Assembly: GCA_964620965.1 (NCBI GenBank)
Contig: CAZUHV010000003.1
Span: 226,093-290,092, forward strand
From: an uncultured Pseudomonadales bacterium
GTDB lineage: Bacteria; Patescibacteriota; Microgenomatia; UBA1400; PJMF01
Length of the DNA stretch: 64,000 bases
Reading direction: 5' to 3'
The notes under the pieces are model-generated. The model did not search any database, was not told where the DNA came from, and saw nothing but the letters and a program-made list of their open reading frames with translations. Positions 26,524 to 54,134 of this stretch are shown piece by piece. The translations under genes and the position numbers were made by a program. Numbering within the stretch: the first letter of the stretch is position 1; the number at the start of each line of letters is the position of its first letter.

Positions 26524-27369
26524 ATGCATTCAATCGAAGAAATTACAATTATATATCAAGACGAAGATATTGTTGCTGTTAATAAACCAGCGGGAGTTAT
26601 TGTAAATCGTGCACAAACGGTAAAAGGTGAGACACTACAAGATTGGTTAGAAACAAATATCCCAGAAATTAGAGATATTGTTACAAAAGGAATATATCCA
26701 GATGGATGGATGTCGCAAATTCCAGATGAATTTAGTGATGAATTTGGATCTCCACAAGAAATATTTTTGCAACGTTCTGGCATTGCTCACAGATTAGATA
26801 AAGAGACGAGTGGTATTCTATTAGTTGCAAAGCATCCAGGTTCTTTATTAGAGCTTTTGCGACAATTTAAGCAACGTGAGATACAAAAACAGTATCTCTG
26901 TTTAGTTCATGGAAAATTTGCTTTACCAACAGGAGAAGTTGTTGCTCCATTGGGAAGAAGAAGTGGAAATCGTAAACTTTTTGGAGTTGTCGCAGAAGGA
27001 AGACCTGCTATTACACACTATGCAGTTCAAAACTTTTTTCCAGAATTTAACATAGATCGTGTGATGCAAGAAACGGGTGAAAAAAGCAAGAGATTTTCCT
27101 TGTATCAAGGTTTTTCTCTAGTTAAGTGTTGGCCAAAAACTGGAAGAACTCATCAAATTAGGGTGCACATGGCACATATTTCGCATCCAATTGTGGGGGA
27201 CAAGCTCTATGTTGGTAAAAAGAGAAATAAACTAGATTTTCTTTGGTGCAAAAGACACTTTTTACATGCCCATTCAATCGAATTTACACATCCAAGAACT
27301 CATGAAAAATTGCAGCTAGAAGCACAGCTTAGCGCAGATTTACAAACAGTTCTTGAATATATTCGGTAG
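26524..27369 (+). CDS. rluD: RluA-family pseudouridine synthase (RluD-like)
   Basis: Catalytic motif HRLDKETSGILLVAK and C-terminal PUS domain. Confidence 0.8.
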   Translation: MHSIEEITIIYQDEDIVAVNKPAGVIVNRAQTVKGETLQDWLETNIPEIRDIVTKGIYPDGWMSQIPDEFSDEFGSPQEIFLQRSGIAHRLDKETSGILLVAKHPGSLLELLRQFKQREIQKQYLCLVHGKFALPTGEVVAPLGRRSGNRKLFGVVAEGRPAITHYAVQNFFPEFNIDRVMQETGEKSKRFSLYQGFSLVKCWPKTGRTHQIRVHMAHISHPIVGDKLYVGKKRNKLDFLWCKRHFLHAHSIEFTHPRTHEKLQLEAQLSADLQTVLEYIR

Positions 27370-37678: not shown

Positions 37679-38533
37679 ATGGCAAAAAAAGAGTCAAAAG
37701 AGCATATAAAAAAGATCACACTTTTAGGAATTCCTGTTGGGAAACTAATGGCTTGGCGATCGAAGTTTCCAAATGATGAAGTAAGTGCACAAGGAATTGC
37801 AGAGGCAGCAAAAATTATTGGCGATGATCCAGAAGGAATGGCAGTTTTATTTGCACACTTGGGTTTGCTTGACGCATTTGGTACTGTGGCGGTTATGGAA
37901 CGGTTGCTTCCCGAATTTAAAGCGCTTTTTCCTGCAGCAGGATCTTTTTATCATTTTCCCATTTTGAACTCAATTTTTGAAAAACTAAACAAACAGTTAC
38001 CATATGAGTTTGCACCTGTGTTTAGAAAAGAAGATTTAGGAAAAATGAAGCTCCATGTAAAAGTAATAGATTTTTCTGGTTTGAGCGGTGAAGAAAAAAA
38101 ACAAGCAAATCAGAGATATTCAGTTGCTGCATCAGAAACGTTGCGTCAGCAAGGGGGGATTGTAATGTTAAATCCTTATGCTGGGAGAGCTCCAAAACTA
38201 GAATATTTTAGAGGAGGTCCACTAAAGTTGATTCAAACTGGAAGACCAGTATTATTAAGTTTTACAATTTGGAACTGGAAAAAGTTAAAGTATGACGTGT
38301 ATTTTTCTAGGGTTATGAAGTTTGACGAAAACATAACAGCACAAGAAGCACACGAGCAAATATTTGCAGAATACATGAGGATGGCTGATTTAAGTGGAGT
38401 TTCAGAAAAACAAGTTTTGGAAGCAAAGAGTGGCACGCCAACGGGAAAAATTATTTGGGGAGCTATTTCTTTAGTGCTCACAGCGTATTTATTGCGGGTT
38501 GCTAGTAAAAGAAAAAATCAGCAAAAAAATTAG
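37679..38533 (+). CDS. Hypothetical tail-anchored protein
   Basis: 284 aa soluble domain followed by a single C-terminal TM helix (IIWGAISLVLTAYLLRV) and a basic tail. Confidence 0.4.
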   Translation: MAKKESKEHIKKITLLGIPVGKLMAWRSKFPNDEVSAQGIAEAAKIIGDDPEGMAVLFAHLGLLDAFGTVAVMERLLPEFKALFPAAGSFYHFPILNSIFEKLNKQLPYEFAPVFRKEDLGKMKLHVKVIDFSGLSGEEKKQANQRYSVAASETLRQQGGIVMLNPYAGRAPKLEYFRGGPLKLIQTGRPVLLSFTIWNWKKLKYDVYFSRVMKFDENITAQEAHEQIFAEYMRMADLSGVSEKQVLEAKSGTPTGKIIWGAISLVLTAYLLRVASKRKNQQKN

Positions 38534-38584
38534 ATCTCTAAATATAACGGTGTTATACTGAATATCAACAGAAAGACCTGCTTT

Positions 38585-39871
38585 ATGAAAATTGTTAAAA
38601 TTTTTGCTGATGAAATCCTTGATTCTCGTGGAAATCCAACTGTAGAAGCAAAAGTTAAATTAGAAAATGGTATGTATGGTGTGGCTTCAGTCCCAAGTGG
38701 AGCCTCAACTGGTTCCCATGAAGCATTAGAATTAAGAGACGAAGAAAGCAAAAGATATTTGGGCAAAGATGTGCAACAGGCAATCGAAAACGTGAATACG
38801 TGGATTGCAGCGGAACTTACTGGAATGGAAGTGACAGACCAAAGAGCAATCGACGAAAAGATGATTGCGCTAGATGGTACTGAAACAAAAAGTAAGTTAG
38901 GTGCTAACGCAATTCTTGCAGTTTCGATGGCTGTTACAAAAGCTGCAGCAGAATCTTTAGAAATGCCTTTATATCAATATGTTGCACGGCTTTTTGGAAA
39001 TTCAGAAACAGAGTACACGATTCCTATTCCAATGATGAATGTTTTAAACGGTGGTAAGCATGCGATTGGCTCAACAGACATGCAAGAGTATATGCTAATG
39101 CCAATTGGAGCGCCAACAGTGGAAGAAGCAGTCCGTTGGGGATCTGAAGTTTTTCATATCATGGGTTCAATGCTTAAAGAAAAAGGGTTTCAAACAACAG
39201 TAGGAGATGAGGGTGGGTACGCGCCTTCCTTAAAGCATAATGAAGAGCCATTTCGTTTGATGATTGCGGCAATTAAAGAAGCTGGGTATAAGCCAGGTGA
39301 AGAAATTGCGATTGCACAGGATCCTGCAGCAAGTGAGTTTTATGAAGACGGAAAGTATCAGTTGAAGACAGAGAGTAGAGCACTCACAAGTTCTGAAATG
39401 GTTGCTTTATATGCAGACTGGATAGAAAAATACCCAATTGTTTCTATTGAAGATGGTTTGGCAGAAGACGATTGGGATGGATTTGTAGCATTAAATAAAG
39501 CGATTGGAGATAAAGTTCAGTTAGTTGGAGATGATTTATATGTGACTAATGTTGAGCGTCTCAAAAAAGGAATTGATCTTGAGGCAAGTAACTCGATTCT
39601 TATTAAGTTAAATCAAATTGGGACTGTAACAGAAACTATCGATGCAATTCGACTAGCAAAACAAAACAGAATGACGGCAATTGTTTCACACCGATCTGGA
39701 GAAACTGAAGATACATTTATTGCCGATTTTGTTGTTGGAGCAGGGACTGGTCAAATAAAAACAGGGTCGCTGAGTAGAAGTGAACGTGTTGCAAAGTATA
39801 ATCGGTTGATGAGAATAGAACGCGAGCTTGGCGAGCGTGCTCATATGGCGGTGTTTCCGTTTAAGAGGTAA
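38585..39871 (+). CDS. eno: Enolase
   Basis: Enolase signature [14 protein letters not shown], the SHRSGETED motif and the N-terminal VEAKV domain. Confidence 0.95.
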
Positions 39872-39885
39872 AAGGACAGAACCTA

Positions 39886-42406
<2,521 letters not shown>

Positions 42407-42430
42407 ATTCTGTTTCCTCTATACTCATAT

Positions 42431-43372
42431 ATGCGAAATAAGGGTATGAAAAGACAGAGTCATAAAAAAATAAAACGAGAAGGTTCAATAAAACAACCTT
42501 CTGTTTTTGTACAATTTTTAAAGCGATTTTTCTACCTATTTTTATGTATAGTTTCATTGCCACTTGTGTGTTATTTTTTCGTTTTTCCTTCGATTATTGA
42601 GAGCGATATTTCAAACAAAAATATTGTAATCGTTTCAGATAAATTAGATGTACAAAGCAAATATATTTATTTTGCACATATTTCAGAAAATCAAGGAGAT
42701 AATGGTATTTTTTCTATTCCATCTCAGCAAGAAGTTATAGTTCCAAAAGGGTATGGAAGTTATGCATTACAGTCGGTATTTCAACTTTTAAAAATCGACA
42801 AAAAAGACGATCAATTCATTCGTGCAGCTTTTTCAGAATTGCTTGGAACATCTGTTGATGAAGTGATATCTATTACAGAGCAATTTACGGAAATGAATGA
42901 GTCAAAACTTTCTCAGTTATTTTTGCAAAATGCAGTACATAACCTTGTAGCTTTTAAATGGCATAAAGTGTATGAACCACTGTATTTGCATTACAAACTA
43001 AAGAACATAGACGTTGAAATGCTTGAATCTCCAGAATCATTAAAGAAATATTCAGAACAGATATTTACAATCAAGGGAGATGTCTATCAATACTGCTCGG
43101 TTGCTGTTGTCAATGCATCAGAGACGAATGGGCTTGCAAGAAAAAAAGCAGATGAAATTGAGAATACAGGGGCATTAGTTGTACGAGTCGATGATGCTCA
43201 AGAAAAACAAGAAAAGACGACAATTTATTACGGGCAAGAGCCTGTTAATTGCAGAGTACTTGCAGAAAAGATTTCTAATATTTTTTATGAAAAACCAGAA
43301 ATTTTTGACATCTCGAAACTAGAAAATACACAGCAATATCGAGCAAAAGTAGTAGTTATTGTTGGAGAGTAG
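42431..43372 (+). CDS. LytR/CpsA/Psr-like envelope protein with a C-terminal LytR_C-type domain
   Basis: N-terminal TM anchor. The C-terminal segment VAVVNASETNGLARKKADEIENTGALVVRVDD...TTIYYG matches the LytR_C pattern. Confidence 0.45.
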   Translation: MRNKGMKRQSHKKIKREGSIKQPSVFVQFLKRFFYLFLCIVSLPLVCYFFVFPSIIESDISNKNIVIVSDKLDVQSKYIYFAHISENQGDNGIFSIPSQQEVIVPKGYGSYALQSVFQLLKIDKKDDQFIRAAFSELLGTSVDEVISITEQFTEMNESKLSQLFLQNAVHNLVAFKWHKVYEPLYLHYKLKNIDVEMLESPESLKKYSEQIFTIKGDVYQYCSVAVVNASETNGLARKKADEIENTGALVVRVDDAQEKQEKTTIYYGQEPVNCRVLAEKISNIFYEKPEIFDISKLENTQQYRAKVVVIVGE

Positions 43373-43378
43373 AATTTT

Positions 43379-44119
43379 TTAGTCTAGTTCCATTTCGTCT
43401 GAATCGACGTGGTCTAGGGTTCGTTCTGTGTCGTTATCTGTTTCAACGATTTCAACAGGAATATTTTCTTCCAACACGACTGCTTCATCGAGTTCACTCA
43501 AAGGATTAAGTGCCATTTTATTTGGTGGGAATGAATGAGTTCCTGTATTTTCTTGAGATTTGAAAATTTCTTTAAGAAAAACTTCACAGTTTTTTTGGTT
43601 ACAAGAACGAATCAAACATTTATATCTGTTTCCAGATTTTATAAATTTTGTCAGTCTAAACGAAAGATCCTCTGGAAGAGCACCTACATAATTGCCATCA
43701 ACTTCTACAGAAAGAAAACGATTTTTCATTTTGAGTTCGCACTCTTTTCCAACAGTGATAGTATCCAGAACATTTTTACCTGCAAGTCTAAATAATGAAA
43801 CAGTTTTTGTTTTTCCTGGTTCTTCTATAAAATAGCCTTTGGCGAATGAAGGGGCATGACAAGCCTGGTTTTTTTGAAGTTTTTCGTAGTGTTTATTTGC
43901 AATTTTGTTATTTTTATCAAGCTCCAGAACTTGTTCAAAGGTTTTTTTTGCTTGTTTTACTTCGTTTAGTTGCACATATGCAATACCAAGTCTATTAAGC
44001 GCGTTTGTATTATCTGGATCTAGTTCTAAAAGTTGAGAATTGTGTTCGACAGCCTGTTCCCAGTTGCCGTCTTTTGCATCTTTGATTGCTAAAATTTTTA
44101 AATCAGCTTGTACACTCAT
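43379..44119 (-). CDS. TPR-repeat protein with an uncharacterised C-terminal domain and acidic tail
   Basis: Two or three TPR-like repeats at the N-terminus (WEQAVEHNSQLLELDPDNTNALNRLGIAYVQLNEVKQAKKTFEQVLELD). Confidence 0.5.
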   Translation of the reverse strand: MSVQADLKILAIKDAKDGNWEQAVEHNSQLLELDPDNTNALNRLGIAYVQLNEVKQAKKTFEQVLELDKNNKIANKHYEKLQKNQACHAPSFAKGYFIEEPGKTKTVSLFRLAGKNVLDTITVGKECELKMKNRFLSVEVDGNYVGALPEDLSFRLTKFIKSGNRYKCLIRSCNQKNCEVFLKEIFKSQENTGTHSFPPNKMALNPLSELDEAVVLEENIPVEIVETDNDTERTLDHVDSDEMELD

Positions 44120-44252
44120 GTGGTTGATACTCCTGACTATAATTATATATTCGTCGTCGAGAAAGAATACCTTTGAATAAGAGTTATGTCAACATTCAAA
44201 ACAGGGCTTTATGGTGTAGAATAGTACCTGCAGTCTGAAAGGATTTTACACT

Positions 44253-44822
44253 ATGGCAGGTCATAGCAAATGGAATAATATTAAGAATAGAAAAGGCGCA
44301 CAAGATACGAAACGTGCACAAGTTTTTGGTCAAATTTCAAAGTTGATTAGAATTGCAGTAAAAGAAGGTGCATCTGGAGACCCAAAGTTTAATCCAGGTC
44401 TTCGTGTTGTTTTAGATAAAGCTCGGGCAGCAAACATGCCTACAACAAACATTGATAAAGCTATTCAAAGAGGTTTAGGAAAATCAGCAACTGGAGCCTC
44501 AATTCAAGAAATTGTATATGAGGGTTTTGGACCAGGAGGTGTTGCAGTGTTGGCTGTTGCACATACAGATAACCCAAACAGAACTTCTGGAGAAATTAAG
44601 TTTGCATTTAGTAGAAACAACGGTTCTCTTGGGGGTCCTGGAAGTGCAATGTATATGTTTAAGCGTGATTCGCAAGGTGGTTATGTATGCACAATGCCTT
44701 TAGAAATTGACGAAGATACTGCTGGGTTGTTACTAGACCTAGTAGATGCAGTACGTGAGCTTGATGATGTTGAAGATGTGTATGTTGCTACCGATCTTGA
44801 AGAAGATGAGGGTGAAGAATAA
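44253..44822 (+). CDS. YebC/PmpR-family probable transcriptional regulator (short variant)
   Basis: MAGHSKWNNIKNRKGAQDTKRAQVF N-terminus is diagnostic. At 189 aa it is shorter than the canonical form of about 240 aa. Confidence 0.75.
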   Translation: MAGHSKWNNIKNRKGAQDTKRAQVFGQISKLIRIAVKEGASGDPKFNPGLRVVLDKARAANMPTTNIDKAIQRGLGKSATGASIQEIVYEGFGPGGVAVLAVAHTDNPNRTSGEIKFAFSRNNGSLGGPGSAMYMFKRDSQGGYVCTMPLEIDEDTAGLLLDLVDAVRELDDVEDVYVATDLEEDEGEE

Positions 44823-44841
44823 TTAAATCAAACTAAAAAAT

Positions 44842-45609
44842 ATGAGGCGTAGAGAAAAATTTGTTGTTGCATCAATTATTTCAACACTTGGTTTACTTGG
44901 TGTGCAGTATGTTACTCTAGATATTAGATATATCGCAATCGCGATTTTTGTTGTGTTTACTTATCTTATTTCTACTTGGGCGCTTGCTGATGACTTGCAG
45001 CTACACGAGAGGGTGACTATAATTCCATTTCCGTCTTTATTTGCCGCAGCTGTATCTTTGTTTTATTTCTTATTACCTGAAAGCTTTTTTTCACAATTAG
45101 TGATAGTTTTGTTATTTGGTGTTGGCATGTATGCGATTTATTTAACGGCAAACATTTTTTCTGTAGCAAAAGGTAGAACAATTCAGCTAGTACATGCGGC
45201 TAACGCCATAGCAGGTATTTTTGGTGTTTTTATTTCTTTGCTACTGTCTAATACAATTTTTTCCTTAAAATTACCGTTTTATTTTAATATGTTGCTTGTT
45301 GGTTTGGTTCATTTTCCTCTGGTATTTATGTTGCTTTGGTCGGTGAATTTAGAAAACAGAGTTGAACGTGACATCATAGGTTTTTCGCTTGTTTTAACCT
45401 TAGTCTTGATGGAGCTTGCACTTATTTTGTCATTTTTTCCTTTGGGAGTCTGGTTTTATGCCTTGTTTATTATGTCATTTTTCTATATCGGGATTGGTTT
45501 AATGCAGAGCTTTATCAGAGGCAGACTCTTTGTTCGTACTCTGGTGGAGTACTCTTTAGTAGCCATTTTTATTGGCTTGATGTTTTTGGGCGCAGTTCCA
45601 TTTAAGTAG
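44842..45609 (+). CDS. Integral membrane protein, hypothetical
   Basis: 255 aa with about 8 hydrophobic helices and no motif. Confidence 0.45.
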   Translation: MRRREKFVVASIISTLGLLGVQYVTLDIRYIAIAIFVVFTYLISTWALADDLQLHERVTIIPFPSLFAAAVSLFYFLLPESFFSQLVIVLLFGVGMYAIYLTANIFSVAKGRTIQLVHAANAIAGIFGVFISLLLSNTIFSLKLPFYFNMLLVGLVHFPLVFMLLWSVNLENRVERDIIGFSLVLTLVLMELALILSFFPLGVWFYALFIMSFFYIGIGLMQSFIRGRLFVRTLVEYSLVAIFIGLMFLGAVPFK

Positions 45610-45934
45610 GGTTTTCTTTATTTTCTAATATAGCTTCTTCTGTAGGCTAAAACTTATTGTTTTTGAAAGTTTTTATCAGGAGAAGAGAATAGTAAGCCTG
45701 GTAGGGCCTAATAACATCCTATAATATGTGAGGAGTAGACAGGGGTAGTTTAGCCTGTTTGCTCCTGGAAAAGCATAGTGGAATTAAAAGTTGTAAATCT
45801 TGAGGATCTTCAGTATGGTCTTGAAATATTTTATATTTAAATAAAATTTACACGATAAAACAAGAATTTTTAAAGAAAAACTAGAGAAGAGGGGTCAAAA
45901 ATTTTTTATATGTACCAGGCGGAGAAGGGAGAAG

Positions 45935-45974
45935 TGATATAGTTTGATACAGTATAAATGATATAGTTTGATAT
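45935..45974 (+). repeat. Iteron-like direct repeat: TGATATAGTTTGATA(C/T) twice, with 24-bp spacing
   Basis: 16-nt copies at 45935-45950 and 45959-45974 inside the non-coding part of the accessory segment. A perfect DnaA box (TGTGGATAA = TTATCCACA on the complement) lies 22 bp downstream at 45996-46004. Confidence 0.5.
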
Positions 45975-46939
45975 AGAGTAGAGGCCTATAATAAATGTGG
46001 ATAACTTTAAACTTATAGGACTTATTTATTAAACATTTAGCCTGGTATAAAGGGCGAGAAATGTATTTTTTGTTTTAAGCTTTCAGGAATATGCAAGAAT
46101 AATTTTGAGCCTCAAGCCTGGTGGTGGAGAGTGTTCTGTTTCAGACATATATGCCTGGAATTTTTTATTTCTAGGTGTGTCGTGAAAAGAGTGTGAAAAA
46201 GAATAAAACCCGAATGTGTTTTTCGGCATATTGAGTAAAAAAAGTCATTTTTGCGAGAGACCCAAGAGAGGTAATTTTGCCAGAGTACACAGAGAGCTAA
46301 AAGGGACGAGCACTACTGTTCTTAGTACAGTGATGTACCATGTATTTCAAAAATGCAATGAGCCACAACCGTCTCATTCTCTCTTTGTGAGTGGGGTATG
46401 ATTTTTCGATTTGCATTATGTCGCACAATATTACTTTTACGACGTAAACTAAAATTTTAAGATTGGAGTAGTTTTAGCAGTTCTTTTATTATTTCTCTAT
46501 ATATCCGGGCAATTTTTAGTATTTATTTATTTTTATTCTTTTTTTATCTTTTTAATTCTCTGTTTGCTTGTCTCTCATATAATTTATTTTTTTGCGATTT
46601 TCACTATTATCGTTTTCTTAAATTTTGGAAACTTTATGATTTTTTCTTGTGAGTTTGTCAATCTATTTATTAACTATGTTTTGATTGCATTTGAGGCTAT
46701 TTGAGCCTCTTAAAACCGGTTTTTTAATGAATACTAAGCCGTTTGTACAATAAAAAGCCGTTTTTGAGCCTCTGACATGTTTTAGCCTGGTAGACTTGTT
46801 AATTTTGGTGATTTTGGCGTTAAAATGAGTATTTTTAAACGGTTTTAGTAAAATTTCTTTCAATGTGTAGTAAAAAATGCTTTCTAACTATTTTTTTGTG
46901 GTACAATCCTTTAAAACTTTTAAAAAAGGAGTTTTTGAT

Positions 46940-47389
46940 ATGCAACTGACACATAGTTTAGAAACTGGCGAAAAAAGAAATTTTAACGAGGTGCGAACTT
47001 GTGAACGAAGAAATCTTTTGGCAAGAAGGCTTGATAAGCAATCAGGAAGATTCAAGCGTATGTGGGCTTTGCATAAGGAGCATTTAAGGCTTAGAAATAT
47101 AAATGAAGCTCAGGAACAAAAGGAATTAGTTTTCGATTCTTTATATGAATTTTTAATTCAGGTTTATGACGCTGGTTTATTGATTTATCCAGAAGTAAAT
47201 ATGGAGTTTGCGGACAACTTTACTGAAGATCTCTTCGCCTGGTTTGCACTCACTTTAGGTTTAATTGAGCAGGATGAAATTGCAGAGATGGCTGGGTATA
47301 TTACTCGAAAAATTGAGGAAACTATTCCAGGCAATCTTGTTGTTGCGGATTTAGGGTTATCTTCTACAACCATTGTAAATTTGAATTAA
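46940..47389 (+). CDS. Hypothetical protein (150 aa) with a basic N-terminus and acidic C-terminal half, island-encoded
   Basis: AGGAG SD 8 nt upstream of the ATG at 46940. No recognisable domain. Confidence 0.5.
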   Translation: MQLTHSLETGEKRNFNEVRTCERRNLLARRLDKQSGRFKRMWALHKEHLRLRNINEAQEQKELVFDSLYEFLIQVYDAGLLIYPEVNMEFADNFTEDLFAWFALTLGLIEQDEIAEMAGYITRKIEETIPGNLVVADLGLSSTTIVNLN

Positions 47390-47601
47390 CTTTTAACTAG
47401 ACTTTTTTGTGTCGCAAAATAATTTTACATTTTCCTCCAAAAAGCTTTAAAGGTTGTTTTTTTCTGTAATTAATTGGAGCCTTGATTTTAGGACTCTTAC
47501 TTAAGGACTCCCCTCTTATACTGCTGGGGGAGAGATCAAGTAAAATTTAGAATTCATTATATTTATGAAAAATCTATCTGAAAGAGTAAGGTCTTCTATA
47601 G

Positions 47602-47934
47602 TTATAGCTCCTGAAGTTTCGAAAGATATTTTTCAACAAGTTCCTCAAAGATCGCTTTGAAAGTTTTTTGGAAGGAACTCCCCTCCTTTGATAAAAGTGA
47701 GTTTATTTTAGTATTGAATGTTTCAAGATCTGTTTCTGACTCGATATTCTGAATTTCTGCAGGAATATCCTCAGATTTGAATTGTTCTTCCATGTTTTCC
47801 GGCTTGGTAATTTCTAAAGCTTGCATTAAGGCGGATGAAATGAGCATAGATAATCCTAGTTGGATGTCTTTTTGGTCAATACCTTTTTCTGTTGCTATTT
47901 CTTGTATACTAGTGAGGTTTTGTTGAATGTTCAT
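47602..47934 (-). CDS. Small acidic helical hypothetical protein (110 aa), second gene of a two-gene minus-strand cassette
   Basis: Follows the upstream gene after a 7-nt gap, which fits an operon. Highly acidic and predicted alpha-helical. Confidence 0.5.
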   Translation of the reverse strand: MNIQQNLTSIQEIATEKGIDQKDIQLGLSMLISSALMQALEITKPENMEEQFKSEDIPAEIQNIESETDLETFNTKINSLLSKEGSSFQKTFKAIFEELVEKYLSKLQEL

Positions 47935-47941
47935 AGGTTTT

Positions 47942-48394
47942 TTAATTAATATTTGTTACCTGATTTATTAGATGTGGAATAAAGCTGGCTCCCATTGAAT
48001 GACCCATCATAACGATTTGATAGGTTGCATACCATAATGCTGCTCTAGCTACGTACCTTGTTTTATCATGGTTCTTAAAGAATATTCCAGGAAGTACCCA
48101 TCCTGCTGCCGCGCCAAAAATTCCAATGAGTCCTGGTAGTCCCCAAATTTCTATATTGTGCAGTAGCTCTCTTAATTTTTCACCAAGAGTTCCAATGTCT
48201 ACTCCAGGAATTGGTTCACCAAGCTTATTAATTTGGTTAAACATTCCTGCTAAAAACATTGCACTGAGTTGCTTTGAATGATGTTCTGGTAAGACATCTA
48301 GAGCTGCTTGAACAGCCGCAGGAATGTTTGCTTCAACCTCTAAGTTATCAGTTGTTTCATTTAAATTTGTTAGGTCTGTAAATTCTCTATTCAT
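47942..48394 (-). CDS. Hypothetical protein (150 aa) with a glycine-zipper-like membrane segment (GLPGLIGIFGAAAGWVLPGIFF)
   Basis: Soluble N-terminal region, then a GxxxG-rich hydrophobic helix, then a Trp/Tyr/His/Met-rich C-terminus. First gene of the cassette. Confidence 0.5.
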   Translation of the reverse strand: MNREFTDLTNLNETTDNLEVEANIPAAVQAALDVLPEHHSKQLSAMFLAGMFNQINKLGEPIPGVDIGTLGEKLRELLHNIEIWGLPGLIGIFGAAAGWVLPGIFFKNHDKTRYVARAALWYATYQIVMMGHSMGASFIPHLINQVTNIN

Positions 48395-48775
48395 GTTTTC
48401 AGTGTATCACATTTTTACAAATTTTATTTTATGTCGCAAAAAAATAATGTATTTGCTATACTGCTTCTTAGTAATTGATTTTTTGTTCCTTAAAAATACT
48501 TTGAAGTAGAAGCAGAGTTTGAAACTATAGTTGCATAGCGCTCTACTCTATTCTTATAAAAAATAAAGTTGCTTAAAGATTTTGTAAAGTCCTTTTTTTA
48601 AAATAAATATATACTAAGTATATCAAAGTATATCTAAATATATATAATAAAAAGCATTGATTTAGCAACATTTATTGTTTTAAACACAAATTAGCAGTAT
48701 TTACTATTGTCTGCTAAAAACTCATAGTATTTTGTCATATAAAAAATCATATAGTCGAGGTGAAATATATACTTT

Positions 48776-49711
48776 ATGGCACTTTCAACAAATCCTCACA
48801 AGGCTTTATTGACTTTTGTAGAACATTTAGAAGTTGAGCGTAATGTAAGCCGTTTAACAATTCGAAATTACTCTCATTATTTGAGACGTTTTAACGATTG
48901 GTTTTTAAATGAAGGTCACAAAGATTTAAAAGAATTGGACCAAGATATTGTAAGAAGTTATCGTGTATATTTGTCACGATTTGTTGATGATGTTGGAAGA
49001 ACTTTGTCAAAAAAAACTCAAAGTTATTACATCATTGCGCTTCGTTCTTTGCTCAAATTTATGGTAAAAAATGATGCTCCAGTTTTGCATCCAGAAAAAA
49101 TTGATTTGCCAAAAGCAGAATCTCAACACATGAAATTTTTGAATTTGGAACGTATTGAAAGACTCCTCAATCAGCCGCTACTTTCACAAAAAGGTGGGCT
49201 TCGTGATAAAGCAATTTTGGAAGTTTTATTTTCGACAGGCTTGCGTGTCAGTGAATTAGTTGGATTGAATCGTGATCAAATCGATATTGAAAAACGCGAG
49301 TTTGGAGTGATTGGTAAAGGTCGTAGACCACGTGTAGTTTTTCTGAGTGAACGTGCTGCATATTGGTTAGATAAGTATATGAACTCTCGTTCTGATAATT
49401 GGGACCCTGTGTTTATTAGATATTCTGGAACCAAGCCGGAGCTTTTGGCCGATGGTGAAGAGATGCGTTTAACTACTAGAAGTGTGCAACGCTTGGTAGA
49501 CAAGTATTGTAGAAAAGCAAAATTGCCAATCAAGATTAGCCCTCATGGTATTAGACATAGTTTTGCCACTGATTTATTGAGTAATGGAGCTTCGCTAAGA
49601 GATGTTCAAGAGATGTTGGGACACAAAAATATTGCTACAACGCAGATTTACACCCATGTCACCAGGCCAGAATTAAGAAAATCTCACGAAAAACACCATT
49701 CTGGGTTATAG
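48776..49711 (+). CDS. Tyrosine site-specific recombinase (XerC/XerD / phage-integrase family)
   Basis: N-terminal core-binding (SAM-like) domain and a C-terminal catalytic domain with R...HxxR...Y (GLRVSEL; HGIRHSFATDLL; TTQIYTHV). GAGGTGA SD upstream. Confidence 0.85.
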   Translation: MALSTNPHKALLTFVEHLEVERNVSRLTIRNYSHYLRRFNDWFLNEGHKDLKELDQDIVRSYRVYLSRFVDDVGRTLSKKTQSYYIIALRSLLKFMVKNDAPVLHPEKIDLPKAESQHMKFLNLERIERLLNQPLLSQKGGLRDKAILEVLFSTGLRVSELVGLNRDQIDIEKREFGVIGKGRRPRVVFLSERAAYWLDKYMNSRSDNWDPVFIRYSGTKPELLADGEEMRLTTRSVQRLVDKYCRKAKLPIKISPHGIRHSFATDLLSNGASLRDVQEMLGHKNIATTQIYTHVTRPELRKSHEKHHSGL

Positions 49712-50036
49712 ATTTGTTAAGATTTGAGACAGTTTATTTGTTTTGTTGATTTTTTATGAGTGTGTTTTTTGGAAGATTCGCTTTTTTTAATTAATTCCAG
49801 AAAATAGTTCTTCTTCTTTTAGATCTTTATCTATATCAAAAAGTAAATTAAGATATAAAAATATATAGGATTTTAACCTAAATTAGCACTTTTAGCCTGG
49901 ATTTCTCCCCTTCTCTGCTGTGCTTTGGGTTAAATTGTTAGTGATATACTTTAAATTATTATTTGCTATTTTGATATATAGTTATGGGATTTTAAGATGA
50001 GAGCTTTGCAAGAATAAAATGGTTAAAAGGGTTTTT

Positions 50037-50059
50037 CCCCCGCACATTTAGTGCGGGGG
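50037..50059. other. Perfect 9-bp GC-rich inverted repeat (CCCCCGCAC-attta-GTGCGGGGG), a terminator or protein-binding hairpin
   Basis: Lies between the recombinase gene and the small peptide gene. Weak T-run (gttttct) on the plus side. Confidence 0.5.
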
Positions 50060-50076
50060 AAGTTTTCTAAAAAAGA

Positions 50077-50196
50077 TTAGTTACCAGCTTGTGCGAGGAC
50101 TTGTGCTACAGCTATACCAAGAGGTATAACCACAACAACAACTACGACCAGGCAAACAAACATGGCAACTGCAGCTTTGGCTATAAAAGTACCCAT
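50077..50196 (-). CDS. 39-aa ultra-hydrophobic single-TM peptide (MGTFIAKAAVAMFVCLVVVVVVVIPLGIAVAQVLAQAGN), a candidate small membrane toxin or small membrane protein
   Basis: Strong AAGGTGA SD 5 nt upstream of the ATG. Not in the ORF track because it is below the 60-aa threshold. Followed on the minus strand by the GC hairpin. Confidence 0.45.
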   Translation of the reverse strand: MGTFIAKAAVAMFVCLVVVVVVVIPLGIAVAQVLAQAGN

Positions 50197-50484
50197 TGCA
50201 ATCACCTTTTTTTTGAATTTCTCCAAGAATTACGCTTTCGCCACTCGGAGTGAAGTTATCTCTATTTGATATTCGGATCGCGTAGACCCGACATCCTCAT
50301 AGAGATGCTCAAAAAACCAGACTTTAGTTTCTTAAGGATCTCTATGCAAGAAGCTCTGTTAATGTGCAATTAAAACTACTTTATCAGTAATTATGAGACA
50401 TATCAATAGTTTTTTGCTTAAATGTGGGTCTCTCCTCGTTGTGTTTTTGAGGCAACTTGGGTAACATATGCAGTATACAGAAAT

Positions 50485-50558
50485 GGGCCTGTAGCGCAGC
50501 TGGTTAGCGCGTTTGTATGGCATACAAAAGGTCAGGGGTTCGAATCCCCTCAGGTCCA
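50485..50558 (+). tRNA. tRNA-Ala (anticodon GGC)
   Basis: Hand-folded cloverleaf: acceptor GGGCCTG/CAGGTCC with the G3:U70 pair characteristic of tRNA-Ala, D-arm GCGC-AGCTGGTTA-GCGC, anticodon stem TTTGT/ACAAA with loop ATGGCAT (GGC), T-arm AGGGG-TTCGAAT-CCCCT and discriminator A. Confidence 0.85.
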
Positions 50559-50705
50559 CAAAAATTTTTTGATATAAAATACTTGAATTTCTTCAAAAGT
50601 CTTTTGATTACTCTTGCGTTTTCTTTGAGGTTTACTCTTTGATAAGAGTGGCTTATGTGGACTTGTTTGTTATTTATTGCAAAAAAAGGTATTTAAATGG
50701 CAAAA

Positions 50706-50731
50706 GGCCGGGTAAACCCGGCCTTTTTTTT
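50706..50731 (+). terminator. Rho-independent terminator (GGCCGGG-taaa-CCCGGCC + T8), partly bidirectional
   Basis: Perfect 7-bp GC stem followed by tttttttt on the plus strand. Four A's precede it, giving a weaker minus-strand function for the downstream small membrane protein gene. Confidence 0.7.
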
Positions 50732-50760
50732 GGCGTTTTTATACGCCCCCCCTCTGGTTT

Positions 50761-51000
50761 CTAATAACGTCCTGTCCTGCTACGCAGGAACAGAAATATT
50801 CCAATAAAAATGATTCCACAGACTGCTATACCGATTTTCTCCAGTATATTCAGAGTGGGAACTGTTAAAAATCCGCAAATTCCCAACATAATTCCTAATA
50901 GGATTATGGCGAACATATTTCGCATTCTGACTACAGCCCAAGAATTCACGGTTGTGCCACTACTGTGGCTTGCCATTTGTCGACCTTGTGAGTCTTTCAT
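50761..51000 (-). CDS. Small two-TM membrane protein, hypothetical
   Basis: AAGGGTGA SD 6 nt upstream of the internal ATG (MKDSQGRQ...). Two hydrophobic helices. Confidence 0.45.
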   Translation of the reverse strand: MKDSQGRQMASHSSGTTVNSWAVVRMRNMFAIILLGIMLGICGFLTVPTLNILEKIGIAVCGIIFIGIFLFLRSRTGRY

Positions 51001-51323: not shown

Positions 51324-54134
51324 CTACTCCTCTTCCTTTTGCAAGGTTAAAGCTACTGCAGCGACCTTGTTATCACCTTTAAGACGCATCAAAATCACGC
51401 CTTGAGTTGGTCTGGTGAGTATTGGGATAGATTTTTTTGTAATTGGCATTTTAAGCGTCTGGCCGTCTAGAGTGGTAATAACCAAATCTGAGTGTTCATC
51501 TGTGTTCACTTTACGTGCGCTTGCAACCATACCAGTTCGTTTGGTAATATCTGCCACTTTGACACCCATTCCAGAACGTTTTTGTTTAGGATACTGATCA
51601 AGTTTGGTTCTCTTACCCATACCGTTTTCGGTGACAATCAAAAGTTGTGTTTTGTCGTTAGCTTTCTCGAGATCTTCAGGATGTAAAACTTCAAATCCAA
51701 CAACGGAATCTTCTTTCTTGAGAGTTATTCCTTTAACACCTTTGGTATCACGGTTGCTTGCCTTAACTTCAGACTCATCAAATCTAATACACTTGCCTTC
51801 GTGAGTGATCATCATGAGCTCGTCATCGCCAGTAGTGAGGGTTCCTTTAACCACTGCATCCCCGTCATTTAAAGTAATAGCAATGATGCCATTTTGGCGG
51901 ATGTTATCGTATAATTTAACAGCAGTTTTCTTGACCAAACCTTGAACAGTTGCAAAAGTGATGTATTTTTCTGCATCTTTTGCTTCATCAACGATCAAGA
52001 TGGAAAGTACTCTTTCATCTTGTTGCAGGTTGATGATATTAACAATAGCAGTTCCTTTTGCTGTTCTTGAGGATTCTGGAATCTCAAATGCTTTAAGTTT
52101 GAAAACTCTTCCTGTGTTGGTGAACACCATGAGTGTGTCGTGAGTGTTTACTGTCAAAAGGGTTTGGACCACGTCTTCTGCCTTCATCTTGAGGCCAACA
52201 CTACCCTTTCCACCTCTACTTTGAGTTCTAAACGCACTTGGAAGCATTCTCTTGATGTATCCAGTTTCTGTTAATGTGATGACTACTTCTTCACTTGGAA
52301 CGAGGTCTTGTTCAGAGAACTCACCAATCTTACCTTTAACAAGCTTAGTTTTTCTTTCGTCTCCATATAGTTCTACAAGCTCATTTGCTTCGCCAACGAT
52401 TACATCGAGGATATCTTGGGTGTTACTGAGCAATTTGATCAATTCATCAAGTGTTTTCTTGATTTGTTCATACTCTTCTTCAATTTTAAGGCGTTCAAGA
52501 GCAGCTAAACGTTTAAGCTGCATGTCTAAAATTGCCAAAGATTGAGGTTCAGAAAGTCCAAATTTTTTCATTAATGCGTTTTTTGCGTCTTCTTGAGTTT
52601 TGGACTTTCGAATGGTTTCGATAACTGCATCAAGATTTGCGAGTGCAATGAGCAAGCCTTCTAAAATATGAGCACGATTTCTTGCGGCCTCGAGTTCATT
52701 TTGGCTTCTGCGAACAACCATAAGCTGTCTGTGCTTGATGTACTCCATTAAGATCTGGCGGATGTTCATGAGCTGTGGAGTGCCTTCAGAATTGAGAGCA
52801 ACCATGTTCATGGAAAATGTCGTTTGCAGTTCTGAGTATTTGAAAAGTTTGTTTAGAACAACTTTTGGAATTGCGTCTTTTTTGAGGTCGATAGTGATTT
52901 GCAAACCATTCCTGTCGGAGTCATCATTAAGGTCTTTAATACCTTCAATTTTTTTGTCGCGAACTAATTGCGCGATTTTTTCGAGTAATCTTGCTTTGTT
53001 AACCTGGTAAGGGATTTCTGTGACAATAATGTGGAATCTACCTTTTTTATCTTCGACAATATCGGTTTTTGCTCGAGTAACTACTCTCCCCTTTCCGGTT
53101 CTGTAGCCTTCTTTTATTGCATTGAAGTCATACATAATACCGCCGGTTGGGAAGTCTGGACCTTGAATGTACTCCATAATTTCATCGATTGTGATGCTAG
53201 AGTCGAAGTTTCCAGCTAAAACTTGAGAATTTGTAGCCAATAATGCATCGATTTGTGCATGCATTGCCTTGATTTCTTCATCTTTTTTAGCGGCTTTTTT
53301 GCGTTCTGGAAGGGTAAATTTTGCATCTGCAGGAACTTCAGATTTACCTGCTTTGATCATTGCCACAATTGCGGCGACAACTTCATTCAAGTTATGAGGT
53401 GGGATTTTTGTTGCCATACCAACAGCAATACCTTCCGAACCCATTAAGAGAAGATTTGGCAGTTTTGCAGGCAAAACATCTGGTTCTTGAAGCGAACCAT
53501 CGAAGTTATCAGAAAATGGTACAGTATTTTTATCAATATCTTGCAGTAATTCTCTAGTAATTTTGGCCATTCTTGCTTCGGTATAACGCATAGCAGCAGG
53601 GCTGTCTCCGTCAACAGAACCAAAGTTACCTTGCCCATCGATGAGTTCGTATCTCATACTAAAGTCTTGAGCTAAACGAACCATTGCCATATACACAGGG
53701 GCGTCACCATGTGGGTGGTACTTACCAAGCACGTCACCAACAATACGAGCAGATTTTTTATAGGAGGAGTTCCAGTGGATACCACTTCTGTGCATGGAGT
53801 ATAAAATACGTCTGTGAACTGGCTTAAGACCATCACGCACATCTGGAAGTGCACGAGAAACGATAACGCTCATTGCATAGTCGAGATAGCTTTTTTCCAT
53901 TTCCGATTTGATAGAAATGAACTTAAGTTTTCCGTATTTGCTATCTTCGATTGTGCCAATTAAAGATTGATTATTTTCTTCAGAATTTGATTGCTCGGAA
54001 CCTTTGTTTTCGGAGTCAGCTTCTTCTGCATTTTTTTCACGTACAGCGTCTGCTTCTACGATATCTGCAACTTCTTGCTTGATTTCATCAATTTTTTCTT
54101 GTTTTGGGTCTTTGTTTTCGTTTGGGTCTGCCAT
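51324..54134 (-). CDS. gyrA: DNA gyrase subunit A
   Basis: 936 aa. Active-site region [12 protein letters not shown]-region equivalent, GyrA-box-like QSRGGKGS in the C-terminal beta-pinwheel. Acidic N-terminal extension of about 60 aa. Confidence 0.9.

Follow-up and report, generated by a model that had tools for sequence, protein, structure and literature searches.

The core sites of Xer recombination, dif among them, share a defining geometry of two 11-bp arms separated by a 6-bp centre (PMC5357621). Some sites are tied to the recombinase gene, as in the XerS/difSL system, where xer and the site are inherited as one module (PMC5357621). Others carry additional DNA: the plasmid site cer consists of a core plus an accessory region (280 bp), and an accessory sequence of a few hundred bp makes resolution at cer and psi independent of the position of the site and of FtsK (PMC5357621). 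The archaeal XerA/dif system is also FtsK-independent, and its site may lie away from 180 degrees (PMC5357621). Our literature search found no paper linking Xer or dif to the candidate phyla radiation (CPR, Patescibacteria). Here we describe a xer locus from a member of this group, contained in a 64-kb window (the whole stretch of DNA analyzed, to which all coordinates refer) that represents a piece of a chromosome with 36% GC. The locus occupies the segment 45610–50570 and includes the gene of a Xer-family tyrosine recombinase, a 28-bp palindrome upstream of it (the P-site), a conserved non-coding stretch of 1.27 kb and three small genes (orf170, orf110 and orf150).

In our best explanation, to which we give a probability of about 0.5, the segment is an ancestral xer locus whose palindrome would be the Xer core site and whose conserved flank would be an accessory sequence. 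A lone copy of one palindrome arm would permit autoregulation of xer and would have taken part in the insertion of a small gene module. A first-pass annotation had instead proposed that the segment is a ~5-kb integrative element targeting the tRNA-Ala(GGC) gene and carrying uncharacterized cargo. Much of the description behind that proposal held up. The coding fraction of the segment is indeed low (0.48 versus 0.90 in the remainder of the window), its first 1,267 nt (45610–46876) have no open reading frame (ORF) longer than 66 amino acids, and the largest gap in the window between ORFs of at least 100 amino acids spans 45610–48775. The predicted Xer-type recombinase, the three small proteins encoded on two strands and the families of short repeats were also found, as detailed below. 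The interpretation as a mobile element was not borne out.

The resident xer gene and the palindrome upstream of it

We collected more than 80 related loci through a GyrA scan of a genome collection and a Xer-alignment scan of metagenomes, and read their gene order by tblastn with the window proteins wherever the contig was long enough. The order queA, tgt, lytR-C, TPR, yebC, DUF5656, gap, xer, a variable stretch, gyrA, an optional DHH-family gene and gyrB is invariant, and xer lies between DUF5656/yebC and gyrA in every relative with enough flank (~50 Microgenomates loci). The Xer proteins of the relatives are 59–94% identical to that of the window, and their divergence matches that of GyrA (71% identity for Xer versus 70% for GyrA in L001; 59% versus 53% in L002). 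Of 53 relatives, 44 have the tRNA-Ala(GGC) gene between xer and gyrA. Homologous proteins have their nearest named sources in Candidatus Woesebacteria and Candidatus Pacebacteria, both Microgenomates, and the locus belongs to a Pacebacteria/Woesebacteria-like lineage of the Microgenomates within the Patescibacteria. By gene order, xer, tRNA-Ala(GGC), yebC, DUF5656 and gyrA-gyrB are core, syntenic genes, and the segment is an ancestral xer locus.

The recombinase has a complete catalytic set (R157, K181, H257, R260, H283 and Y292), of which all residues but K181 are invariant in a three-way alignment. It scores 241 bits on the XerD and XerC models and 210 bits on the XerA model (cut-off, 220), all under the equivalog cut-offs, and 122 bits on the XerS model. 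Scores on the integron-integrase models are 108 and 55 bits versus cut-offs of 265 and 435. The best match to a solved structure is E. coli XerD (1A0P, 4.7e-41), and the XerA structures 4A8E and 5HXY were matched as well. More than 6,000 homologs were recovered at E≤1e-80, with the nearest named sources again in the Woesebacteria and Pacebacteria. Between the window and the 95.6%-identical strain L124, xer has accumulated 25 synonymous and 4 non-synonymous changes. Judged by alignment and gene order, the window protein is the resident Xer of the lineage.

This conservation bears directly on the proposed tRNA-targeting element, in which 5 kb would be mobile, with Xer as the integrase, tRNA-Ala as the attachment site, and small ORFs plus repeat-rich DNA as cargo. 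A tyrosine recombinase near a tRNA gene, orphan small ORFs, a low coding density and Logan contigs that end at the 3′ end of the tRNA gene all fit such an element. The 5-kb island reading nevertheless fails because the gene order recurs across relatives, with xer and tRNA-Ala(GGC) holding the same position lineage-wide, and because the divergence of Xer tracks that of GyrA. The expected empty site between the membrane-protein gene (DUF5656) and tRNA-Ala was not found either: xer is always present, and only the small ORFs are absent from some relatives (e.g., L120). Furthermore, tRNA pieces of 16–24 nt (1–2 mismatches allowed) have no second copy in 40–56 kb, and the repeat search shows no such family, leaving the island without an att-type repeat. 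The composition of xer and the small ORFs (GC 0.34–0.37; GC content at third codon positions, GC3, 0.24–0.32) does not deviate from that of the core genes (GC 0.364±0.023; GC3 0.261±0.041). The non-coding part has a GC of 0.31, which is only slightly low and expected of intergenic DNA. Elements that target tRNA genes are normally located at the 3′ end of the tRNA; here the segment lies 5′ of tRNA-Ala (+ strand). The supposed non-coding cargo is kept in ~50 relatives, and the larger insertions near the tRNA of other relatives hold ordinary genes (response regulators, a SIMPL-like protein and glycosyltransferase-like membrane proteins) and encode no integrase. Taken together, we regard a tRNA-targeting element as extremely improbable. 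The annotation had also placed the recombinase immediately upstream of tRNA-Ala; the two genes are co-oriented and xer is upstream, but they are 773 nt apart and not strictly adjacent. What stands of the accessory cargo is orf170, orf110 and orf150 (1.0–1.5 kb), whereas xer, the tRNA gene and the 1.27-kb stretch are conserved.

The palindrome carries 11-bp inverted arms and a 6-bp asymmetric centre and follows the general pattern ATGTCGCACAA-N6-TTTTGCGACAT. Of 60 non-redundant relatives, 52 carry it at a distance of 0.5–2.4 kb upstream of xer. When the two arms are compared with each other, they match at 10 of 11 positions in the family consensus and at 9 of 11 in the window copy; their information content is 1.2–2.0 bits (0.8–1.6 in the centre). 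The centre differs between lineages (TATAAC, TATTAC, TAATAC and others), and the whole palindrome is inverted in two distant relatives (L115 and L116). Of 76 matches to the arm 12-mer within 21-kb loci, 47 fall in the kilobase upstream of xer, and this confinement led us to reject a global regulator or promoter motif. In the window, 12-mers of the TGTCGCA type are found at 46418, 47409 and 48431. The sole other concentration of half-sites is a group of three TGTCGCA-type 10-mers (one exact, on the − strand) in 280 bp at 26711–26997, inside the ORF at 26524–27369.

The 11-6-11 geometry of the palindrome, its near-identical arms and the precedent of modules that join a xer gene to its site lead us to infer that it is the sequence on which the neighboring Xer acts. 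Each arm would be bound by one Xer monomer, and strand exchange would take place across the 6-bp centre. Three conserved motifs (TGATATAGTTTGATA, TGTGGATAAC and AAAACCCGAA) lie in ~480 bp on one side of the core, and this flank may act as an accessory sequence, as in cer and psi; the role is assigned by analogy. Such a sequence would let the site resolve chromosome dimers away from the terminus. The lone arm copy overlaps the −35 position of the predicted xer promoter and could bring xer under the control of its own product. Lastly, a small circle carrying a half-site may have recombined with the chromosomal half-site, inserting orf110-orf150 and duplicating the half-site region as the direct repeats S2 and S3.

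Several observations weigh against this explanation. The palindrome is not a canonical dif: scans with the dif sequences of E. coli and B. subtilis returned only background matches in the window. The P-site itself shares 13–17 of 28 positions with these references, and hundreds of window positions score equally. Classical dif sites are located at the GC-skew switch. At this locus, by contrast, the skew at third codon positions (GC3 skew) is positive on both sides in the window and 27 relatives alike, whichever strand the genes are on. The unchanged GC3 skew therefore means that the locus is neither the origin nor the terminus of a bidirectionally replicated chromosome. The distance of 0.5–2.4 kb between the site and the gene also falls short of immediate adjacency. 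Moreover, only about one in two relatives has the promoter half-site, and the few variants available show weak co-variation between it and the palindrome arm. The palindrome could also serve as the binding site for a dimeric transcription factor, and the lone half-site is an incomplete recombination site, so that S2 and S3 could have been duplicated by another route.

Conserved non-coding DNA upstream of xer

The gap between DUF5656 and xer measures 0.9–1.7 kb and has few or no ORFs in almost all relatives. The presence of the same ORF-free gap in relatives led us to reject a recently decayed pseudogene as the source of the 1.27 kb in the window. Blocks of blastn similarity in this stretch are common to dozens of relatives; L038, for example, aligns at 69% identity over 1,143 nt. 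Alignments and motif maps resolve these blocks into near-invariant short motifs in a fixed order, spaced by variable sequence with insertions and deletions. They identify the 1.27-kb stretch as conserved DNA with a fixed motif series and a predicted cis-acting role.

Three elements precede the palindrome (Table 1). The first is a pair of copies of TGATATAGTTTGATA, which can be read both as TGATA-N5-TGATA and as an extended −10 element (TGnTATAGT). The second is a single DnaA-box-like 10-mer; in 36 of 52 relatives, no more than 120 nt separate the TGATATAG motif from a DnaA box with at most one mismatch, and the box is perfect in 21. The third is the invariant AAAACCCGAA. After the palindrome, the sequence becomes AT-rich: the following 200 nt are 79% AT in the window, and the mean of the relatives is 67% versus 62% for the region. 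The conserved AAAAAGCCGTTTTTGAGCC closes the series. Short repeats are superimposed on this order, as the first-pass annotation had noted. The repeat AGCCTGGT has six copies in the window, four of them within 45695–46791, a number that none of 100 shuffles reached. The sequence CCWGG is enriched 6-fold (5.5 versus 0.9 per kb). Motifs containing CCWGG (AGCCTGGTA or TACCAGGCT) and TATAGG(C/A)C are dispersed and occur in both orientations, and the orientation of CCWGG, TATAGG and the P-site differs between lineages.

A large structured RNA was considered and rejected. No Rfam family was matched at the gathering or E-value thresholds, and the fold energy of the two strands was no better than that of shuffles (z of −0.91 and +0.17). 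In the alignment, candidate hairpins are not kept by compensatory changes. The lack of an Rfam match and of a fold signal, together with motifs that flip strand, therefore supports a function at the level of DNA rather than of structured RNA. The same results bear on the possibility that the stretch is a regulatory region or a non-coding RNA gene. Its motifs would then be promoter and operator elements for an unannotated transcript or for xer and the slot genes, with TGATATAGT as an extended −10 element, the DnaA box and the palindrome as operators, and no role in recombination. The match of TGATATAGT to an extended −10 element, the overlap of the half-site with the xer promoter and a hairpin-like pair around the DnaA box in several relatives are consistent with this possibility. 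Besides the missing RNA signals and the flipping motifs, however, 1.2 kb is long for a promoter region, and regulation leaves the 11-6-11 geometry of the palindrome unexplained. We consider a purely regulatory function unlikely.

The combination of a DnaA box, iteron-like repeats and an AT-rich stretch also raises the question of a replication origin. In the related order UBA1400, complete genomes (Ch65, Collierbacteria and Beckwithbacteria) have a monotonic cumulative GC skew (PMC7143001), and an adjacent origin and terminus were proposed for UBA1400 Microgenomates by Kadnikov et al., who did not locate them (PMC7143001). If the conserved stretch were such an origin, the origin and terminus would meet beside xer, replication would fire rightwards in one direction, and the palindrome and Xer would resolve dimers where the single fork returns. 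The perfect DnaA box and the direct-repeat motif are conserved, the AT-rich stretch lies next to the palindrome, and gyrB and gyrA are nearby. The sign of the GC3 skew is unchanged across the locus, and one strand of the window is rich in G over its whole length (G 20.2%, C 15.8%). Two relatives with Ch65-like skew, L104 and L109, carry the same xer locus.

Other features argue against an origin. Each region has one conserved DnaA box, with two boxes of at most one mismatch in 4.6 kb, and 420 nt separate the box from the AT-rich stretch. L104 has neither the DnaA box nor the repeat motif. No dnaA signature was detected in the 64 kb, and the window contains neither a sign change of the GC skew nor a dnaA/dnaN adjacency. 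The genes on the left side point into the region. Furthermore, an unchanged skew is what any mid-replichore locus shows, and PJMF01, the one UBA1400 family with ~36% GC, has an ordinary skew pattern (PMC7143001). An origin or terminus based on the peak of raw skew near 50 kb was rejected as well, as the third-codon-position skew, separated by gene strand, does not change sign (bidirectional chromosome). An origin at this site, alone or side by side with the terminus, is in our view very unlikely. If both were nevertheless here, the locus would mark the place that Kadnikov et al. postulated and would explain the excess of G on one strand in related genomes.

The GC skew of L104 and L109 reaches 0.35 and 0.27 over 15–21 kb, as extreme as the published strand disparity of Ch65 (PMC7143001). 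In the window, the + strand is G-rich across its length and the GC3 skew is positive even for − strand genes, including gyrA and gyrB; these two genes are therefore head-on to the inferred fork direction.

The gap has a second variable position, between DUF5656 and the TGATATAG motif, which is empty in the window. In relatives (L118 7426–8163, L122 221–877, L038 9–1997, L057, L064 and L068), it is occupied by a family of 218–245-amino-acid proteins, with three tandem paralogs in L038, or by a UDP-glucose dehydrogenase and an epimerase. In the distant relative L108 (7467–9892), the DUF5656-xer gap contains a second Xer-like recombinase (334 amino acids), a 159-amino-acid ORF and a HAD-like gene.

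The variable slot and the half-site of the probable xer promoter

Gene-order comparison restricts the accessory genes of the segment to orf170, orf110 and orf150, which occupy a slot between the conserved stretch and the predicted xer promoter. The content of the slot varies among close relatives. It is empty (196 nt) in L120, whose Xer is 92% identical to that of the window, and contains only an orf170 homolog (158 amino acids) in L118 (Xer 94%; BOKR01000001.1, 140–161 kb). An orf170-family gene is found in L122, two in tandem in L123, and the orf110-orf150 pair alone in L126. A different family of small genes is present in two copies in L128 (Xer 93%) and in one copy in L038 (Xer 91%), and L130 (Xer 90%) has an unrelated gene of 247 amino acids. 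The window combines orf170 with orf110-orf150, and more distant relatives have ordinary metabolic genes in the slot.

In agreement with their first-pass description as motif-less, none of the three small proteins matched Pfam, NCBIfam, PHROGs or PADLOC, and no function was recognizable in them. A search of 1.84 billion representatives recovered six homologs of orf170, which start at the equivalent of the ATG at 46940. Three of them (P0003, which is the 158-amino-acid gene of the L118 slot, P0004 and P0006) are all in the slot upstream of xer. The AlphaFold2 (AF2) model of orf170 (predicted local distance difference test, pLDDT, of 75.5) had no fold match in the PDB. The protein is predicted to be all-helical, and orf170 belongs to a small, fast-evolving family that recurs in the slot. 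The acidic, helical orf110 has a single diverged homolog (P0129, 68%), paired with an orf150 homolog in the slot of another species. For orf150, no homolog beyond those at 96% identity was found among 5.8 billion proteins. A 42%-identical partner is encoded in L126, and the single-sequence AF2 model of orf150 was unusable (pLDDT of 48). The hydrophobic, glycine-rich C-terminal half of orf150 makes it a probable membrane protein, and our guess is that orf150-orf110 pairs a membrane protein with a partner. Three scans found no relatives of the cargo in viral contigs.

The substitutions between strains bear on whether these ORFs are genes. Comparison with L124 gave 15 synonymous and 6 non-synonymous changes in orf150 and 4 and 2 in orf110, and the changes in orf170 between the window and the 98%-identical strain L033 are enriched at third codon positions. 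By these patterns, all three show purifying selection and are real genes. The alignment with L033 over 37936–48625 is also a mosaic. Enolase and queA are 4.5% divergent and tgt-DUF5656 ~0%, whereas 46475–47481 is 5–12% divergent and no difference exists in orf110 or orf150. The pattern indicates that co-existing strains frequently undergo homologous recombination with each other.

The orf110-orf150 module is flanked by S2 and S3, direct repeats of 28 nt (47405–47432 and 48427–48454 for the aligned copies) with 79% identity and a spacing of 1,022 bp. Both share the exact 10-mer TGTCGCAAAA, which otherwise occurs once in the 64 kb. S2 and S3 align to the single half-site of L118, each keeping one of its flanks (the left flank, at the end of orf170, in S2 and the right flank, with the promoter, in S3); we therefore interpret orf110-orf150 as a 1,022-bp insertion. 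S2 is mutated in L033. S3 is without substitution in L124, amid intergenic DNA of 6% divergence. Its arrangement of a half-site, ~14–19 nt and TATACT recurs in L118, L120, L038, L039, L123, L128 and L129; overall, the subclade of the window and about half of all relatives have it. In close relatives, a TG-N comes before TATACT, as in an extended −10 element; the window reads GCTATACT. The half-site and TATACT probably form the xer promoter, which would permit autoregulation. About 70 nt upstream of the xer start, the closest relatives share an inverted repeat, TTAGCAG-N13-CTGCTAA (48690–48716 in the window, ~3913–3940 in L038 and ~6032–6058 in L039), that may be a leader or operator element.

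The turnover of the slot could also reflect a Xer-linked cassette platform, similar to an integron or to pdif modules and integrative mobile elements exploiting Xer (IMEX), with the slot as a capture site where Xer inserts, excises and exchanges modules ending in half-sites. Consistent with such a platform, the slot content of close relatives is combinatorial (empty, orf170 only, orf110-orf150 only, both, two paralogs or other families). A half-site copy separates the two modules of the window, one of which, of 1,022 bp, lies between direct repeats, and the palindrome and the promoter half-site bracket the slot in the same orientation. Yet flanking repeats were found for one module of one genome only, no half-site separates the tandem genes of L123 and L128, and the half-sites have no recognizable second arm. 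The presence of ordinary metabolic genes at this position in more remote relatives, the score of 108 bits versus a cut-off of 265 on the integron-integrase model and the active homologous recombination evident from strain mosaicism, which could give the same turnover, also make a dedicated platform unlikely.

The features of the locus are listed in Table 1. From left to right, the segment follows the end of DUF5656 with the ORF-poor 1,267 nt, orf170 (+), orf110 and orf150 (−) and xer (+). Beyond xer lie a strong bidirectional terminator, a 39-amino-acid ORF (−), tRNA-Ala(GGC) (+), a 92-amino-acid ORF (−) and then gyrA, the DHH-family gene and gyrB (all −). The hydrophobic 39-amino-acid peptide and its ribosome-binding site are present as the first-pass annotation described, but tblastn found no match in any relative and the gene remains putative.

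Table 1. Features of the xer locus and its anchors in the 64-kb window.
Feature	Position	Strand	Description and evidence
DUF5656 membrane-protein gene	44842–45609	+	Left anchor; Pfam PF18900 (3.5e-06); tblastn 34–72% identity left of the gap in ~50 relatives
Conserved ORF-free region	45610–46876		Candidate accessory/cis-acting DNA of the xer locus; blastn blocks, fixed motif order
TGATATAGTTTGATA, two near-invariant copies	45935–45949, 45959–45973	+	Column identity 0.86; upstream of the palindrome in 48/52 relatives
DnaA-box-like 10-mer TGTGGATAAC (reverse complement GTTATCCACA), single	45996–46005	−	One of two perfect TGTGGATAA in the window
AAAACCCGAA, invariant motif	46205–46214	+	Alignment, motif maps
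P-site palindrome, ATGTCGCACAA / TATTAC / TTTTACGACGT	46418–46445	+	11-bp inverted arms, 6-bp asymmetric centre; candidate dif-like site
AT-rich stretch	46480–46700		Directly after the P-site; GC 0.28–0.31
AAAAAGCCGTTTTTGAGCC, conserved motif	46752–46770	+	Left edge of the variable slot; column identity 0.82; alignment, maps
orf170	46940–47389	+	149 amino acids from ATG after an AAGGAG ribosome-binding site; ORF from 46877
S2, left copy of 28-nt direct repeat	47405–47432	+	Half-site TGTCGCAAAA; left junction of the orf110-orf150 insertion
orf110	47602–47934	−	Second gene of module; acidic helical protein; one diverged homolog
orf150	47942–48394	−	First gene of module; hydrophobic glycine-rich C-terminal half; no usable model
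S3, right copy of direct repeat and likely xer promoter	48427–48462	+	Half-site ATGTCGCAAAAA (48431–48442), 14 nt, TATACT (48457–48462)
xer	48776–49711	+	Core, vertically inherited Xer-family tyrosine recombinase; PF00589 (1.9e-40); catalytic set; synteny
Bidirectional terminator hairpin	50034–50062		12-bp stem; between xer and the 39-amino-acid ORF
39-amino-acid peptide ORF	50077–50196	−	Very hydrophobic; GGTGA-type ribosome-binding site; putative gene, window-specific
tRNA-Ala(GGC)	50485–50559	+	773 nt downstream of xer
gyrA	51324–54134	−	Right anchor; DHH-family gene and gyrB next; conserved

Additional variation was noted around these features. The spacer between xer and the tRNA gene is 300–700 nt longer in the window than in most relatives. 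In L041–L043, L057, L058, L064, L068 and L080, tRNA-Ala(GGC) is inverted relative to xer and still located between xer and gyrA. Independent short-read assemblies (L032, L034, L128, L130, L129 and L033) end precisely at the 3′ end of tRNA-Ala (50557–50559), 300–360 nt after xer or in the intergenic DNA upstream of xer; breaks at those points suggest strain-level variation on both sides of xer. Between the tRNA gene and the 92-amino-acid ORF, 50682–50761 (−) has a sub-threshold Rfam match to the Brucella small RNA BSnc120 (29.7 bits versus a gathering threshold of 114), which is probably due to chance. On the left, YebC/TACO1 (44253–44822) has only 186–189 amino acids in the window and close relatives versus 256 in the distant L002, and its Pfam match to the second and third domains spans just the first third of that model.

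Comparison with known systems

Like tRNA-targeting islands, integrative and conjugative elements and prophages, the locus has a tyrosine recombinase gene near a tRNA gene and orphan genes. Unlike in these elements, the recombinase and tRNA genes are ancestral neighbors, att repeats are lacking and the composition is that of the genome. The segment also occupies the wrong side of the tRNA, and the DNA taken for cargo is conserved. The comparison removes a false positive, as a recombinase beside a tRNA gene reflects ancestral synteny here.

The slot resembles IMEX, the pdif modules of Acinetobacter and integron cassettes, in which small modules bounded by copies of a tyrosine-recombinase site lie beside a resident site. 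It differs from all three in that the flanking repeats are half-sites, known from one example, and in that our searches traced the cargo to no virus or plasmid; integrons differ further, as the locus has no attC-like structure and no IntI signature. The turnover of tiny genes in the slot is unusually fast, in genomes that are otherwise streamlined, and makes it a place to look for host-interaction or addiction functions.

The modules formed by XerS/difSL in streptococci and lactococci and by XerH/difH in Helicobacter and Campylobacter are similar in that one xer gene is linked to a palindromic site with ~11-bp arms (PMC5357621). In these modules as at the locus, near-identical arms suit a single protein, and the gene and site are inherited together. 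There, however, the site is immediately adjacent to the gene, whereas here the two are 0.5–2.4 kb apart. The centre of difSL has 11 bp rather than 6, and the window protein scores 122 bits on XerS versus 241 on XerD/XerC. The locus also differs in lying off the GC-skew switch and in the ~480 bp of conserved motifs that accompany the site.

The archaeal XerA/dif system has the same 11-6-11 arrangement and a single recombinase, and its dif need not oppose the origin or use FtsK (PMC5357621). The window protein approaches this family, with 210 bits versus the cut-off of 220 and matches to 4A8E and 5HXY. In contrast, the lineage is bacterial and the best structure is E. coli XerD, and descriptions of the archaeal dif mention no linkage to xerA and no long conserved flank.

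Plasmid cer and psi, whose accessory DNA is bound by PepA with ArgR or ArcA, also combine a core of 28–30 bp with a non-coding flank on one side (PMC5357621). Unlike these sites, the locus is chromosomal; its putative accessory stretch is roughly double the length and has unrelated motifs, and no sites for PepA, ArgR or ArcA are known from this lineage. Across a large group of uncultured Microgenomates, xer stays tied to a non-coding region of 1–1.6 kb with an almost invariant candidate core site of the recombinase type. If this is a dimer-resolution site, these bacteria would resolve dimers independently of position, as cer and archaeal XerA do.

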